This document shows positions 7,769-63,998 of a DNA stretch of 64,000 bases, piece by piece. Where the stretch lies: positions 64,001 through 128,000 of the IMG/VR virus record IMGVR_UViG_3300005613_002762; one strand, written 5' to 3'. Every line of letters begins with the position of its first letter. Positions within the stretch are counted from its first letter, which is position 1. Made by a program: the position numbers and the translations under genes. The notes under the pieces are model-generated. The model made no database searches, had not been told where the DNA came from, and saw only the letters and a program-made list of their open reading frames with translations. The DNA is from a virus.

Positions 7769-8389
7769 ATGAATTCAGAAGCAGAATTATTACAAAAATT
7801 GATGATTTCAAAAAAAATCATGGAAAAACATAACGACATTGGTCGTGGTCAAGCAAGAAATATGACATCACAAGAAAGTTATTCATCACCGATGGTAGAA
7901 TCTTATGAAGCGATTCCAGCAACATATAATTTACCACAAGAGTTTTTAGAGGAACAAAGACCCGTTCAACAAGTTAATAACCAAGTTCCATTAGAAGATA
8001 GAATTTCAAATTCTAAATTACCTGACGATATAAAAAGGTTAATGATGGAACACCCAATTCAACAACCAACTATGGGTATGGGAACAAATGCGGTATTAAG
8101 TAATGAATTGGTTGAAAAAGCGTCTCGATTGATGAATGCTAACGCCAAAGGTGATGTTGTGAACGAATCAAAAACAAGAAGACAAGTTCAATCACAACCA
8201 TCACAACAAACATCTTCATTATCAGCACAACAAATCAAAGATATTGTTAGAGAAACTATGGAAGAAGTATTATCTGAAAATGGTTTATTAGTTGAATCTG
8301 AATCTAAAAGCGGTGAAATGTTTAAGTTTAGAGTAGGACAACATCTATTTGAAGGTAAGGTTCTAAAGGTTAAAAAAATGGCTAAATAA
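7769..8389 (+). CDS. Hypothetical phage protein
   Basis: 206-aa ORF followed by a terminator. Confidence 0.75.
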   Translation: MNSEAELLQKLMISKKIMEKHNDIGRGQARNMTSQESYSSPMVESYEAIPATYNLPQEFLEEQRPVQQVNNQVPLEDRISNSKLPDDIKRLMMEHPIQQPTMGMGTNAVLSNELVEKASRLMNANAKGDVVNESKTRRQVQSQPSQQTSSLSAQQIKDIVRETMEEVLSENGLLVESESKSGEMFKFRVGQHLFEGKVLKVKKMAK

Positions 8390-8414
8390 TACTTTTCAGG
8401 CGAACTCCTAATAT

Positions 8415-8446
8415 TAAACCCACTTCATAAAAGGTGGGTTTTTTTA
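8415..8446 (+). terminator. Intrinsic terminator
   Basis: AAACCCAC-TT...GG-GTGGGTTT hairpin followed by a T-run. Confidence 0.7.
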
Positions 8447-8517
8447 TTGATTATTCTTTTGTTTTTATATTTTTACCTTTTGACACAACCTTTAATATTT
8501 ATAATATAAAGTGTTAT

Positions 8518-48548: not shown

Positions 48549-50588
48549 ATGTTAGAATTTATGGACGATAGCAACGAAAAATCCAAGAAAAAAACAGATA
48601 GTGGAACACCTGTTTTAGATAACTTTAGTAAAGATTTAAATAAATTAGCTCAAGACGGAAAATTAGATCCCGTTATTGGTAGACAAAGTGAGATATTTAG
48701 AATTGCTCAAATTTTATCAAGAAGAAAAAAGAATAACCCAATTATTATTGGTGAACCAGGAGCCGGAAAAACCGCAATAGTGGAAGGTTTAGCAATGATG
48801 ATCCATAACGGAGAATGTCCCAAAAATTTAATGGATAAAAGGATTGTTTCTTTAGATATGAATTCATTGGTTGCAGGAACCAAATATCGAGGTCAGTTCG
48901 AAGAAAGAATGAAAGCGATAATCGAAGAACTACAAGTTGCCCCAAATATAATTTTATTCATAGATGAAATTCATACTATGGTTGGTGCTGGAAACAGTTC
49001 AGGATCGTTAGATGCTTCAAACATTTTAAAACCAGCGCTTTCTCGAGGAGATATACAATGTGTTGGAGCAACAACTTTAGATGAATATAGAAAACATTTT
49101 GAAAAGGATGGAGCTTTAGATAGACGATTCCAAAAAGTCATTGTCGACCCTTCTTCAAAGGAAGAGACATTTGAAATTCTAAAACAAAGTAAATCAAAAT
49201 ATGAAGACCATCACAAAGTTTCTTATGATGATAAAACTTTATGGATATTTGTTGAGTTAGCTGATCGATATATTACAGATCGTGAGTTTCCCGATAAAGC
49301 GTTTGATATTTTAGATGAGGTTGGGTCGAGAATGCAAGTTGATATAAAACTACCTGAAGAAATTGAAAAATTAAAGGATGAGGCGGCAGCAATTAAACAA
49401 GAAAAATATACTGTAATTAAACAACAAAAATACGAACTTGCCGCAGAACTAAGAGATCGAGAAAGAAATGTTATTTCGAAACTTGAGGAAGAAAAAAAGA
49501 AATTTGAACTTAGTCTATTAACTAGTAAAAGAAGTATTCCTGAAGAATTGATATATGAAGTTGTTTCAAACATGACAAAAATTCCAATTTCAAATATTAA
49601 TTTAGACGAAAGAAACTCTCTAATTAATTTGAATGATAATTTGAATTCAAAGGTGATTGGTCAAGAGGAAGCCGTTAATAAAATTGTCAAATCGATTAGA
49701 AGAAATAGAATCGGAATTAAAGATCCAAATAAACCAATTGGTTCATTTATTTTCTTAGGTTCTACTGGTGTTGGTAAAACATATTTGGCAAAACAATTGG
49801 CAAAAGAAATTTTTGGAAGTGAAGAGAACATGATCCGTGTGGATATGAGTGAATACCAAGAAAAACACACCATCTCTCGTTTAATTGGTTCACCTCCAGG
49901 ATATGTTGGTCACGATGAAGGTGGTCAGTTAACCGAACAAGTTAAAAACAAACCTTATTCTGTTGTATTGTTTGATGAGATTGAAAAGGCACATAAAGAC
50001 ATCTTTTCAACATTACTTCAGTTGTTAGACGATGGTCATATCACAGATTCTTTAGGTCGTAAGATCAACTTCAAAAACTGCTTAATCATTATGACATCTA
50101 ACATTGGTGTTAAGAAATTACAAGATTTTGGAACTGGAATGGGATTTCAGACCAGCAAAAGTGAAGTGGTTAAAGAAGAAGAAAAACAAGAAGTCTTAAA
50201 AAAAGAAATGAAAAAGTTTTTCGCTCCTGAATTTTTAAATAGAATTGATGATGTTGTTATCTTTAATTCTTTGGACAAAGAACATATTGATGTTATTACA
50301 AAATTAGAAATTGACAAACTCTTAAAAAGAGTGTCTGAAAAAAACTACCACTTCACATATGATCAAGACTTAGTCGACTATATTTCAAAAGTTGGATTTG
50401 ACGAAACATTTGGAGCAAGACCAATCAAAAGAGCTATTCAAAATAATATTGAAGATCTAATTTCAGAAAAAATCCTAATGATGGAGATTGAAGAACATAA
50501 AGACTATGTTTTAAAAATTGAAAATGATGTGGTGGTGGTATCAAATAAAGAAGAAAAAGTAAAAAGAGGTAGAAAAAAGAAAGAATAA
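48549..50588 (+). CDS. clpC: ClpC-type AAA+ unfoldase lacking the Clp-N domain
   Basis: LDPVIGR, GEPGAGKT, FIDEIH, UVR-type M-domain YELAAELRD, GSTGVGKT, GYVG, LFDEIEKAH, MGF loop, GARP. Confidence 0.9.
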   Translation: MLEFMDDSNEKSKKKTDSGTPVLDNFSKDLNKLAQDGKLDPVIGRQSEIFRIAQILSRRKKNNPIIIGEPGAGKTAIVEGLAMMIHNGECPKNLMDKRIVSLDMNSLVAGTKYRGQFEERMKAIIEELQVAPNIILFIDEIHTMVGAGNSSGSLDASNILKPALSRGDIQCVGATTLDEYRKHFEKDGALDRRFQKVIVDPSSKEETFEILKQSKSKYEDHHKVSYDDKTLWIFVELADRYITDREFPDKAFDILDEVGSRMQVDIKLPEEIEKLKDEAAAIKQEKYTVIKQQKYELAAELRDRERNVISKLEEEKKKFELSLLTSKRSIPEELIYEVVSNMTKIPISNINLDERNSLINLNDNLNSKVIGQEEAVNKIVKSIRRNRIGIKDPNKPIGSFIFLGSTGVGKTYLAKQLAKEIFGSEENMIRVDMSEYQEKHTISRLIGSPPGYVGHDEGGQLTEQVKNKPYSVVLFDEIEKAHKDIFSTLLQLLDDGHITDSLGRKINFKNCLIIMTSNIGVKKLQDFGTGMGFQTSKSEVVKEEEKQEVLKKEMKKFFAPEFLNRIDDVVIFNSLDKEHIDVITKLEIDKLLKRVSEKNYHFTYDQDLVDYISKVGFDETFGARPIKRAIQNNIEDLISEKILMMEIEEHKDYVLKIENDVVVVSNKEEKVKRGRKKKE

Positions 50589-54439: not shown

Positions 54440-54477
54440 ATATTTATAAATATATTGAATAATACAAATCTTTGTAT

Positions 54478-54501
54478 TATATTTGTATTATAGTTCTTTG
54501 A
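54478..54501 (+). promoter_or_regulatory. Bacteroidetes-type -7 promoter plus boxA-like element for tmRNA
   Basis: TATATTTG 54478-54485; GTTCTTTGA 54493-54501. Confidence 0.65.
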
Positions 54502-54522
54502 AAATAGTCATTTAAGATATAT

Positions 54523-54941
54523 GGGCCTATATCGGATTTGACGGGCGTTGGTTGGATAAAAGAAGCATGTAGGGACTAAGTTAATCTCTTTAAAAACTGA
54601 CTTAGAAAACAACTGGCAATGTGCTAAACAAAATGGAAACTCTTGGTTTACTAAGAGGTTCTGAAGTTACTGTAGCTTAATAAGATACGGAAACGGGGGG
54701 TCGGTCAGACAGATAACCTAGCAACAGAAGTCGTAGATGAGTTGGTTTTCACTCTAAAAGAAAACAACGGTCTCGTTCAGAGGGCTACCGTAACAAAAGT
54801 GAACTCGACACAGTTTTTGGTAACAATGTCAAAATAGGAACCAAATATTTTGGAAGGTATGAAAAACCTTAACCTAAACATGTAGTTGTCTTTTTGACAA
54901 AACGAGCCGGACGAGGGAGTCGGAGCCCTCTAGGTCCACCA
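54523..54941 (+). ncRNA. ssrA: tmRNA
   Basis: 5' GGGCCTA-TATCGGATTTGAC pairs with 3' TAGGTCC-ACCA, including the G3:U alanine determinant; GCATGTAG/CATGT helix; tag ORF 54615-54680 GNVLNKMETLGLLRGSEVTVA followed by TAA TAA. Confidence 0.9.
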
Positions 54942-54944
54942 ATT

Positions 54945-54978
54945 GATCCCATCATTTAATTATGATGGGATTTTTTTA
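54945..54978 (+). terminator. Terminator after tmRNA
   Basis: ATCCCATCAT...ATGATGGGAT plus a T7 run. Confidence 0.85.
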
Positions 54979-55021
54979 TGCATTAAAATTATTGTGTATT
55001 TGATTGTGATTTTTTTGAGCA

Positions 55022-55047
55022 CAAAAAAAGGGACAACTAAGTCCCTA
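55022..55047 (-). terminator. Terminator after the large ncRNA
   Basis: AGGGAC-TTAGTT-GTCCCT plus a T-run on the minus strand. Confidence 0.8.
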
Positions 55048-55049
55048 AA

Positions 55050-55975
55050 TGTTTTTGCCGGTCGCTCCATCTTTTTAAAAAAGAAACGCTGAGATTACAC
55101 GTTTGTTGCGAGAACCTTTAGAGTCATTATTGTTTCTACTCTTATCCACTTTCTTTTGGAAAGTATTTCTCAGTGTTGGTTATTTAGGTGAACCACTCCT
55201 TGAGATCTTATCTACACTCTTACTACTTGACTCTCTTCGAGGATGCCTCCCCAACTCGTCCTTGCGGGATTAGAGATCTTTGGTAAAAATACACTTGGTC
55301 TTGGGAACCTCATGTGCCACGGACAGCCCGTGACTAAGTAAACACCTTTCGACAAGATCTGACAGACACTTTTCCTTATTTTATTAATTAATTTGACTTA
55401 ATACAATAGTCATAAGTTTGTGTCGTGGATTATCGAAGTAGTGGTCTGCCAACCGAGCCAACCCATTTTTTGAACGAGTCGATACTCAACTACTCCGTGA
55501 AATGTCCCCATTTCCATATTTCAAGACTACTTCGAAACTAACCCCTTGGTAGAAGTTGGTTAAGGTTAGTAACGACACCACTCGTACACTAACATACCTT
55601 TCGGCTTTAAGTATCCTTTTATATTGGGAAACGCAATAATGAAATCGGATAATCTCATGTTTTGCAATATCCCTACGAGTTATTCCTATTGTTGTTCCCA
55701 ACTCAACTGAACGACCCACATCGCCCAATCATCTAACCACTTTCCCTACAGCGTTGCCCTCGGTACTAAAGGTTAAACGGTATCCCGCTTGTGTACTCAA
55801 GCTCCTAAAAGAAGCCGCAAATCATCTAACACAAATGACTCACTTTATCCTACTTTCGTAGTTTATTTTATGGACCATACACAGCCCAATATCTTTATCA
55901 TTCAAAGATGGAAATTTTATTCCAATTACTTGTCAAAGAATCTGACAAAACTTTTCCTGAACGGATAATCTATTT
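55050..55975 (-). ncRNA. Large ornate structured RNA, GOLLD-like (~900 nt)
   Basis: No credible ORF, GC raised relative to flanks, own promoters and terminator; long-range helices CUGAGA/UCUCAG and CGAAGUAGU/ACUACUUCG; GNRA-type loops; 3' end GUGUAAUCUCAGCG recalls GOLLD (from memory); near tRNAs. Confidence 0.7.
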
Positions 55976-55977
55976 CT

Positions 55978-56130
55978 TCAAAGAACGTTTCGGACTTTTC
56001 CGATTTGTTTTACAAAGTTAAGACATTTATTTTGATCTGTCAAGTACTTTGTGAACTTTTTTTTTAATTTTTTTTCGGTTGTTTCCGATTGTTTTACAAA
56101 TGTAAAAAACTTTTTTTAATTATTCAAGTC
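55978..56130 (-). promoter_or_regulatory. Tandem host-type promoters, leader hairpins and boxA-like site for the large ncRNA
   Basis: TACATTTG 56097-56104 and TAACTTTG 56013-56020, each followed by TAAAACAA(A)TCGGA..CCGA; GTTCTTTGA at 55978-55986. Confidence 0.7.
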
Positions 56131-56292
56131 CTTTACAATATTTTTTTCTACATACACATCATATGTTCCGTAGAATCGTGCTCTTAATTGTGCAAACTCC
56201 AAATTTGATGTCCACAATGTTTTTCCGTTTGAAATATATGAATACATCTCAACGTCTTTAACTTCTTTTTCTTGTTTTATTTCTTCACTCAT
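56116..56292 (-). CDS. Small hypothetical protein (58 aa)
   Basis: MSEEIKQEKEVKDVEMYSY...; below the ORF track cutoff; late-type motif upstream. Confidence 0.65.
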   Translation of the reverse strand: MSEEIKQEKEVKDVEMYSYISNGKTLWTSNLEFAQLRARFYGTYDVYVEKNIVKDLNN

Positions 56293-56348
56293 GTTATTAT
56301 TGTATTACAAGTGAAATGATAGTATAAATATAAAAATGAGTCAAATAT

Positions 56349-57017
56349 TTAAAGAACTTTTTTCATGATTTCTTTAATTCTTACCACATCTTCATTTACA
56401 GATTCTTTTTTCAAACTCGCAATCCCTTTGAAAAAATCGGTCATTGGTCCTAAATCGAACAATTGAAAATCATCGTCACCCCCAAAATCTATCTTTTTAT
56501 CGGTGTCATCTTTTTTTTCATCGTCAGAAAAATCGTCCGTTTCAATTTCATTACTTTTACCACTGAAAATTGACTTAGAATTTTTTAATAAATCTCTTAA
56601 GTGTTTACCAAAAGGAAGACCAATATGGACATGAGTCATTTTATCGTGACCAACCCATTCAGAAACTACACCTATTCTATCACCAACTTTGACTTTATCA
56701 CCAGCACTTAATTTAACATCTTTAAGGTGTGTATAAAAAATTTCAGGAAATCCATCCGTTCCTGAAACTGTGACTTGAGTTCCATATATTTTACCTGAAT
56801 TTTTTCCTGTATCTCTAACTTTTTTGACCGTTCCATTTGTGTATGAATTAACAACCGAACCTGCAGGCGCAAATACGTCCCAAGCATTATCTGATTGCCA
56901 ATTCCCTAAAGCTCTTGATCCGTGATTTTTTGGACCATTTTCTAAATCGGTACGAAATGGACCACCTATATTGGTTGAACCTTCAGATATTATTTTTTTT
57001 GAAGTATTTCTATTCAT
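56349..57017 (-). CDS. M23 family peptidase (peptidoglycan hydrolase)
   Basis: FYTHLK, V.VGDRIG, HVHIG. Confidence 0.85.
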   Translation of the reverse strand: MNRNTSKKIISEGSTNIGGPFRTDLENGPKNHGSRALGNWQSDNAWDVFAPAGSVVNSYTNGTVKKVRDTGKNSGKIYGTQVTVSGTDGFPEIFYTHLKDVKLSAGDKVKVGDRIGVVSEWVGHDKMTHVHIGLPFGKHLRDLLKNSKSIFSGKSNEIETDDFSDDEKKDDTDKKIDFGGDDDFQLFDLGPMTDFFKGIASLKKESVNEDVVRIKEIMKKVL

Positions 57018-59767: not shown

Positions 59768-59798
59768 AGTTTTTAATTTAATATATCATTTTTTTTTG

Positions 59799-59881
59799 AA
59801 GTCAGGGTAGGATTCGAACCTACAATGAGCAACCATCTATAACAGATGGATTCAACACCATGTCTCTTTACACTCCTGACC
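59799..59881 (-). ncRNA. tRNA-like RNA with intact acceptor and T arms but a non-canonical anticodon arm
   Basis: GGTCAGG/CCTGACT acceptor, GTAGG-TTCGAAT-CCTAC T arm, internal CCATCT-GTTAT-AGATGG hairpin. Confidence 0.6.
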
Positions 59882-60163: not shown

Positions 60164-60271
60164 ATTTATTTGTAGTTAAGTAGTTGACACACACTCTCGT
60201 TTCACCATCTTATGTCAACAGGTTAATGCACTTAACGAGTTTCCCTTTTCTTACCACCACAATATTTTAAA

Positions 60272-60348
60272 TCAAAGAACTTTTTCCCTCTCGTGTGGGG
60301 GTGAGTCCACCATCACATTTTCTCACCCCCGTTTGTTTTACAAATATA
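60272..60348 (-). promoter_or_regulatory. Promoter, leader hairpin and boxA-like site of the tRNA cluster
   Basis: TATATTTG 60341-60348; GGGGGTGAG/CTCACCCCC stem; GTTCTTTGA 60272-60280. Confidence 0.65.
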
Positions 60349-60359
60349 AGAACTTTATT

Positions 60360-60698
60360 TTAATTTACCAAACACTTTATAAAATATTTTTTACCAATTT
60401 TTTCTAACTTTCCAACATAGTCGTTTTTGTGATCAATTCCTGTCCAAAAACCGCTACCATCACTCCAAAGACCACGTTTATTATTTTTATAAACTTCTTC
60501 ACCAAATGTAATGTAATCAGGCTGATCGTGCTCAAGTAAAAATGTTGCTCTTGTCATTTCACGTTTTTCTTGTGGTGTGTAATTTCCTGACCAATCTTGT
60601 TTACATAAAAAAGTAGCTTCACCAACCTTAACTTCTTGTCCATTAAGAATTGCTTTTTTATCTAATTTTTTCTTGTAAGTGTAAATGTAAGTTCCCAT
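60360..60698 (-). CDS. Hypothetical phage protein
   Basis: 112 aa; TATATTTG at 60716-60723. Confidence 0.7.
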   Translation of the reverse strand: MGTYIYTYKKKLDKKAILNGQEVKVGEATFLCKQDWSGNYTPQEKREMTRATFLLEHDQPDYITFGEEVYKNNKRGLWSDGSGFWTGIDHKNDYVGKLEKIGKKYFIKCLVN

Positions 60699-63500: not shown

Positions 63501-63527
63501 AACATTCAAAGAACTAGTATAAATATA

Positions 63528-63998
63528 CTAACTATTATATAATTTGTCAATCAACTCAACATCTATTGGTGAAAATTCTGTAGTTGTTGTCCAACCTTGA
63601 TAAAAGATACTTTCAGGATATCTGTATGAATCATTACATAACCCCAAAGATTGAGTTAATTCTTCACGAAGTAAGTGTTTTTGGGCATCGATTTTAGTTG
63701 TTCTGAAAATATCAACATAAATTAATGAGTAATCTCTATAAATTTCAAAATAACCCCAATTATGAACCAATAACTCCTCACTAACCTGTGGGTATAACTT
63801 ATCAAATGTTTTGTAATCACCCAAATAAATAAAAGTGTTGGCTTCCGATTTATTTGAAACTATCTCAATATTAATTGTTTCGATAATATCGTTAAGTTCC
63901 CCAACAATACGATCCAATTCAGTCATTAGGTAATCTTTTTTGTGACCGTGAACGTAAATCTTAACATCTTCAGTTCGTTTAAAAACATTATGAGATTT
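63528..63998 (-). CDS. DUF2927-like metalloprotease-fold protein, 5' end beyond the window
   Basis: HLLREELTQSLGLCND...SIFYQ; frame open to the window end. Confidence 0.75.
   Translation of the reverse strand, partial: KSHNVFKRTEDVKIYVHGHKKDYLMTELDRIVGELNDIIETINIEIVSNKSEANTFIYLGDYKTFDKLYPQVSEELLVHNWGYFEIYRDYSLIYVDIFRTTKIDAQKHLLREELTQSLGLCNDSYRYPESIFYQGWTTTTEFSPIDVELIDKLYNS

Follow-up and report, generated by a model that had tools for sequence, protein, structure and literature searches.

The gene-free stretch that lies tail-to-tail with the tmRNA gene of this virus is a full-length GOLLD RNA, and belongs to a family already catalogued rather than to a new one. What appears to be new here is the mode of expression: as read from the sequence, the GOLLD, tmRNA, and tRNA genes stand behind promoters and an anti-termination signal that seem to have been copied from the rRNA operons of Bacteroidota. 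The best explanation overall, to which we assign a probability of about 0.72, is that of a GOLLD gene in a Bacteroidota phage, transcribed from rrn-type promoters through a boxA anti-termination leader. No paper linking GOLLD RNA with boxA was found in the literature searched. GOLLD is among the largest bacterial and phage non-coding RNAs, and its function is unknown after 15 years; the approximately 25 divergent copies considered here indicate how one lineage expresses it, namely with tandem host-type promoters and an rRNA-style boxA leader.

Identity and domain structure of the GOLLD RNA

Positions refer to the window, which is the entire 64,000-nucleotide stretch of DNA that was analyzed. 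A whole-window Rfam search gives one dominant match for the flagged stretch, GOLLD (RF02032), which scores 308.3 bits against a gathering cut-off of 150 (E = 2.5e-87) and spans model positions 1-416 of 416 without truncation. For ROOL (RF03087), the other family for which a model search had been proposed, Rfam gives no match in the window, whether the threshold is set by gathering score or by E-value, and none at E ≤ 1 in the 2-kb region. The preliminary description had offered a GOLLD-class or a new RNA as alternatives; the former is borne out more strongly than it was first proposed, and the latter falls with the full-length strong match, which removes family novelty. The rank of top candidate in the window, also given to the stretch at that time, was overstated for a catalogued family.

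A phage context is established by genes in the window for the major head protein, the portal, and the large terminase, and the source is a large uncultured tailed phage represented by a virus record of 149,190 bases with a CheckV completeness of about half. Six tRNAs are located at 58.8-63.5 kb on the minus strand, within 8 kb of GOLLD. The phage also encodes an FtsH-like ATP-dependent protease (48549-50588, plus strand; phrog_4871, E = 6.5e-241). The earlier characterization of the stretch as ORF-free holds, the longest ORF in 55022-56115 having only 80 aa (55486-55728, minus strand, TTG start); among 26 homologs the frame stays open in 12, and stops or frameshifts interrupt it in the other 14.

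The Rfam model represents the conserved 3' half of GOLLD only. Homologs were collected by means of a 24-nt core motif, which retrieved 43 viral contigs; 37 of these proved to be GOLLD loci, and the remaining six are chance matches in unrelated marine contigs, where the motif follows the stop of a CDS. Across the whole unit (~56074 to ~55061) 25 non-identical homologs can be aligned, with identities of 69-90%. The 5' domain of ~480 nt begins with a variable leader-proximal hairpin region (~55974-55900) and continues as a conserved multi-helix domain, and part of it matches, at ~70% identity, the 5' region of the GOLLD carried by an uncultured phage of 642 kb. From 24 sequences a consensus fold with 98 pairs was obtained for the 5' half, with standard pairs in 97.6% of the cells. 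Compensatory changes are present at 56 of these 98 pairs, compared with 10-15 after displacement of the partners by 1-3 columns and 31.7 ± 2.9 after shuffling, and 19 of the 20 helices have compensatory support among 24 homologs. The covariation that had been suggested as a check is thus strong for the 5' half in 24 related uncultured-phage loci. The stretch also merits its earlier description as helix-rich, with -271.2 kcal/mol for the fold of the predicted transcript of 987 nt compared with -238.6 ± 8.2 for shuffles (z = -3.98). Because of the covariation in the 5' half, the z-score of the fold, the broken ORF, and the 5' homology to the 642-kb phage, the region ~55974-55086 as a whole is regarded as a two-domain GOLLD. 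The features of the locus are collected in Table 1.

Table 1. Features of the GOLLD locus, the convergent tmRNA unit, and the tRNA leaders, in window positions. Promoters and starts are predictions.
Feature	Positions	Strand	Basis
tmRNA unit: putative promoter 54455-54485, boxA-like element 54493-54504, tmRNA 54523-54941, terminator 54945-54972 and T-run	54455-54979	+	
3' trailer and intrinsic terminator: stem-loop 55046-55029, U-tract 55028-55022	55022-55085	-	terminator scan
GOLLD conserved 3' domain, including A/U-rich linker	55086-55497	-	Rfam RF02032
GOLLD 5' domain, outside the Rfam model	55498-55974	-	alignment A2, RNAalifold, pair counts
boxA-like element GTTCTTTGAAGA, ~+23 to +34 of the predicted P2 transcript	55975-55986	-	conservation, enrichment, leader context
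Leader hairpin TCGGAAAAGTCCGA, boxB-like by position	55990-56003	-	stem-loop scan; upstream of boxA
Putative promoter P2, proximal: TTG 56043-56041, 20-nt spacer, TAACTTTG 56020-56013; predicted start ~56008	56013-56043	-	motif, alignment A1
Small hairpin of the P1 module, TCGGAAACAACCGA	56075-56088	-	read from sequence; counterpart of P2 hairpin in repeat D1
Putative promoter P1, upstream: TTG 56127-56125, 20-nt spacer, TACATTTG 56104-56097; predicted start ~56092	56097-56127	-	motif, tandem repeat
Conserved 58-aa ORF directly upstream of the GOLLD promoters	56116-56292	-	tblastn; alignment A1
Leader of tRNA Phe-Asp-Glu cluster: putative promoter 60371-60341, TAAAACAA, 9-bp hairpin, GTTCTTTGAT 60280-60271	60271-60371	-	
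Leader of tRNA Ser-Arg cluster: TTG-N20-TATATTTA 63550-63520, then GTTCTTTGAA 63514-63505	63505-63550	-	

Tandem promoters, boxA leader, and flanking units

The tandem near-duplicate modules seen in the preliminary description are present at 56005-56066 and 56089-56150, 84 nt apart and 73% identical. Each consists of TTG-N20-TAnnTTTG followed by TAAAACAA and a small hairpin; the A-rich tract after the P1 hairpin doubles as the upstream A-tract of P2, and P1 overlaps the last codons of the 58-aa ORF. A sigma-70 reading of the modules was rejected, as the sigma-70 scan has no hit there and sigma-70-like sites are not enriched in the 149-kb record (99 compared with 108 ± 9). Since the scan was blank at the modules, the promoter reading was changed to the Bacteroidota type. 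The pattern TTG-N20-TAnnTTTG occurs 32 times in the 149-kb record compared with 17.5 ± 4.4 times in dinucleotide shuffles, and in the alignment of P2 (A1) the TTG and TA..TT(TG) columns alone are invariant while the spacer drifts, which is the footprint of a promoter. TAnnTTTG is the -7 box of the Bacteroidota housekeeping sigma factor, positioned at -12 to -5 (PMC9723704), and the starts given in Table 1 are predicted from this placement. Judged by their motifs, P1 and P2 would be -33/-7 promoters of the Bacteroidota type and not sigma-70 -35/-10 promoters, and the promoters of the phage appear to resemble host sigma-A promoters. Upstream of the head, portal, and terminase genes, no late promoter motif of the T4 type is evident.

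At least two promoters of this type are found within 400 nt in 18 of 24 non-identical related leaders; in some cases the more distant promoters are probably those of the small ORF upstream. By tblastn, the 58-aa ORF flanks GOLLD on its upstream side in 22 related loci at 40-72% identity; it has no Pfam match.

The stem of the leader hairpin covaries among homologs (CGG/CCG, CAGG/CCTG, TTGG/CCAA). The boxA-like site that follows it, as had been noticed at the outset, is GTTCTTTGAA at 55986-55977 on the minus strand. All 26 aligned leaders have the element, with core positions that are invariant or more than 90% conserved, and the alignment of homologs reveals that the core is kept even in leaders where a different sequence has come to lie between promoter and motif. 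This invariance leaves covariation blind to whether boxA is single-stranded. The boxA-like motif has four matches in the window, compared with 0.42 expected. The element GTTCTTTGAAGA is one mismatch from GYTCTTTAANA, the consensus in gamma-proteobacteria; boxA is known to act outside rRNA as well (PMC5725501, also the source of the consensus). A further sequence one mismatch from the boxA core, GTTCTTTAAA, is located at 56348-56357 on the minus strand, at the 3' end of an M23 peptidase gene ahead of the 58-aa ORF, and may be due to chance.

At its other end the GOLLD unit is bounded by the terminator AGGGAC-ttagtt-GTCCCT plus T7, which lies just outside the interval originally flagged, 55050-56130. 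The terminator recognized in the preliminary description is real, whereas its supposed match to the capsid-gene terminator is partial: only the 3' arm TTGTCCCTTTTTTT is common with the terminator of the major head gene (32782-32752, minus strand), and the full pattern AGGGAC-N6-GTCCCT has a single occurrence in the window. In eight homologs a tRNA takes the place of the terminator directly after GOLLD, as is usual for the GOLLD family.

The tail-to-tail arrangement with tmRNA, also claimed before, agrees with the Rfam assignment of tmRNA on the plus strand (73 bits; not called by ARAGORN) and with the terminator that follows it. An Rfam scan reveals the convergent layout in 15 of 24 related loci, and a boxA before tmRNA is also seen in related loci; the recurring pair could have a shared role in takeover of host translation. 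The reading frame of the tmRNA ahead of the double stop yields a long and atypical putative tag, GNVLNKMETLGLLRGSEVTVA. At the DNA level, none of five Bacteroidota genomes has a match to the phage tmRNA. In one related phage contig (L043), a group I intron match (96 bits) at 8253-8474 on the plus strand adjoins the tmRNA (7880-8277) at its 3' end or overlaps it there.

Leaders of other stable RNAs and of host rRNA operons

The motif GTTCTTTGA occurs at seven sites in the 149-kb record. Four of them stand behind a promoter, as leaders of tmRNA (54493), GOLLD (55986), the tRNA Phe-Asp-Glu cluster (60280), and the tRNA Ser-Arg cluster (63514); the remaining three are within coding sequence and have no promoter. 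The 43 related loci contain 48 sites of the motif, 40 of them behind a promoter (30 before GOLLD and 10 before tmRNA). Such an rRNA-like leader would appear to be the general mode by which the phage transcribes untranslated stable RNAs. Approximately 105 nt between boxA and tRNA-Phe (60164-60270, minus strand) are without an Rfam match and may be a small leader RNA or mere spacer. After tRNA-Glu there is a degenerate tRNA-like element (~59798-59872, minus strand) with a good T-arm and acceptor end, which ARAGORN calls tRNA-Tyr(ata) at a relaxed threshold only and which Rfam does not call.

Host leaders were represented by 120 16S loci identified with a Bacteroidota-specific 16S signature, yielding 86 usable leaders, mostly of Bacteroidota. 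Of the 86 leaders, 21 contain exact GTTCTTTGAA at 50-300 nt upstream of the 16S 5' end, and GTTC[AT]TTGA precedes 16S in 40; the 10-mer ranks among the most frequent ones in the leader set. The host leaders are built from an A-rich tract, TTG-N19/20-TAnnTTTG, a short spacer or hairpin, and then GTTCTTTGAA, often in tandem, with at least two promoters in 58 of 80 host 16S leaders. In one locus (L121, MAG Bacteroidia bacterium) the 620 nt before 16S hold a tandem series of five promoter modules spaced by 93 nt, of which four include boxA, in parallel to the tandem modules of the phage. The exact boxA motif is absent from many Flavobacteriaceae 16S leaders.

The control like that of an rRNA operon proposed in the preliminary description stands up to this comparison: Bacteroidota 16S leaders have the same promoter type, tandem promoters, order of hairpin then boxA, and boxA core, and all of these are conserved in related phages. 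The comparison is at phylum level, and with promoter and boxA type as the sole guide to the host, a member of Bacteroidota is most likely; Bacteroidota are thereby indicated as hosts of 'lake' GOLLDs. The GOLLD core motif has no match in 185,579 species genomes, which thus reveal neither a prophage relative nor a host.

Proposed mechanism, alternatives, and known systems

In the proposed mechanism, host RNA polymerase with its housekeeping sigma factor would initiate at P1 (~56092) and P2 (~56008), after which the small hairpin and then boxA GTTCTTTGAA would emerge in the nascent leader. As in host rRNA operons, boxA would recruit NusB-S10 and other Nus factors, and the resulting complex would make the polymerase Rho-resistant over the untranslated transcript of ~1 kb and may also aid co-transcriptional folding. 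Long untranslated transcripts are targets of Rho, and Nus complexes nucleated by boxA protect rRNA and other transcripts (PMC5725501, PMC4807359); it is for this reason that boxA-driven resistance to termination is proposed for the GOLLD unit. Transcription would stop at 55046-55022, where the intrinsic terminator lies opposite that of the convergent phage tmRNA, and the RNA would fold into its 5' and 3' domains and probably oligomerise like other GOLLDs, of which GOLLD env-38 forms a 14-subunit RNA-only cage in vitro according to cryo-EM (Kretsch et al., 2025; PMC12286853). Nus binding and anti-termination at the GOLLD leader, and likewise cage assembly by this particular RNA, are considered somewhat more likely than not. 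A broader proposal, advanced tentatively and with less than even confidence, is that all stable RNAs of the lineage are wired into the host rRNA anti-termination and chaperone machinery by means of copied rrn leaders, such that folding or cage assembly of GOLLD would be Nus-dependent. The leader offers a testable handle on GOLLD biogenesis, in the form of Nus-factor dependence and Rho sensitivity.

As the main alternative, the conservation of GTTCTTTGAA might instead reflect a structural or processing element, for example an RNase site or one strand of a long-range helix closing the GOLLD 5' domain. RNAalifold does pair CUUUG of the motif with CGAAG at 55534-55530, ~450 nt downstream, and both strands are nearly invariant. 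However, this helix is the only one of 20 without a compensatory change and was rejected as having no covariation support, and the same 9-10-mer is found behind the promoters of tmRNA and two tRNA clusters, which share no structure with GOLLD, and also in host 16S leaders. A purely structural or processing origin is thus unlikely, and a processing role could exist alongside Nus binding. Doubt might also be directed at the tandem modules themselves, as AT-rich repeats acting for instance as plus-strand terminators or as a signal for replication or packaging; the A/T content of the region is very high, and the small hairpins and T-rich runs can also be read as weak terminators of the plus strand. 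Nevertheless, conservation is confined to TTG and TAnnTTTG at a fixed spacing of 20 nt, the same build precedes tmRNA, tRNA, and host 16S genes, and the plus strand has nothing needing termination at the modules, so that modules other than promoters are very unlikely.

From the rrn-like control the preliminary description went on to a ribosome-scale role such as decoy or scaffold, understood here as one directed at ribosomes or their assembly. The tmRNA and tRNAs near GOLLD are indeed translation-related neighbors, and ribosome binding in pull-downs has been mentioned, together with a cage larger than the ribosome (PMC12286853). On the other hand, the leader is not specific to GOLLD and is common to all promoter-led stable-RNA units of the phage, boxA serves other transcripts too (PMC5725501), and the sequence is silent on ribosome binding. 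Because the tmRNA and two tRNA clusters have the same leader, it marks stable-RNA units generally and gives no hint of a ribosome-like task for GOLLD; the rRNA-like control would reflect the needs of any long untranslated transcript, and the ribosome-scale role is unsupported and quite unlikely. The company of tRNAs and tmRNA does weakly suggest some translation-related role, which we consider doubtful. As to whether the region might be a new RNA family other than GOLLD, or a set of small-protein genes, the confinement of the Rfam match to the 3' half and the homologs in which the 80-aa ORF is open could be cited in favor, but the full-length match has twice the gathering score, the 5' half is homologous to that of another GOLLD-bearing phage, and the base pairs beneath the ORF, which is broken in the majority of the 26 homologs, covary. 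At the present level of evidence this reading is refuted by the GOLLD match, the 5' homology, and the broken ORF, and is left with almost no probability.

The preferred reading, a GOLLD gene behind an rrn-type boxA leader, may be compared with GOLLD RNAs as reportedly described by Weinberg et al. in 2009. In common with these, the RNA has a conserved 3' domain, an A/U-rich linker, and a large, structured, more variable 5' domain in a total of ~900-990 nt, and it is phage-borne with tRNA genes nearby. GOLLD has been described as associated with phages and tRNAs and as having an unknown function (PMC12286853). Whereas the GOLLD of Acinetobacter phage vB_AciJM_313 is located inside a tRNA array, the present one stands alone as a transcription unit that has tandem promoters, a boxA leader, and a terminator of its own; the convergent tmRNA and the likely Bacteroidota host are particular to this clade. 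In the 642-kb phage the order is promoter-tRNA-GOLLD-tRNA. A boxA upstream of GOLLD was not found in the Acinetobacter phage or in the 642-kb phage, the latter having Bacteroidota-type promoters, and with two GOLLDs lacking it, boxA is not a general GOLLD requirement and the leader is clade-specific. The RNA is like ROOL in being a large, ornate phage RNA near tRNA islands, cage formation being a feature of ROOL, and is unrelated to it in sequence and fold.

Leaders of rrn operons have boxB, boxA, and boxC in this order and function with a Nus-factor anti-termination complex (PMC10250234). The GOLLD leader resembles them in its tandem promoters, its hairpin followed by boxA, and the long untranslated transcript, and resembles many Bacteroidota 16S leaders in an identical boxA core; it differs in that the RNA it drives belongs to a phage, that neither a boxC nor a leader-trailer helix was identified in it, and that Nus binding is presumed. 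By analogy with the nut sites of lambda, a boxA in the nascent RNA would allow the phage to evade termination by means of the Nus machinery of its host. In contrast to lambda, where boxA precedes boxB, the hairpin here precedes boxA in the rrn order, no N-like protein is known, and the target is a stable RNA and not a downstream operon. Stringer et al. in 2020 are said to have described boxA-dependent protection of untranslated transcripts such as CRISPR arrays.
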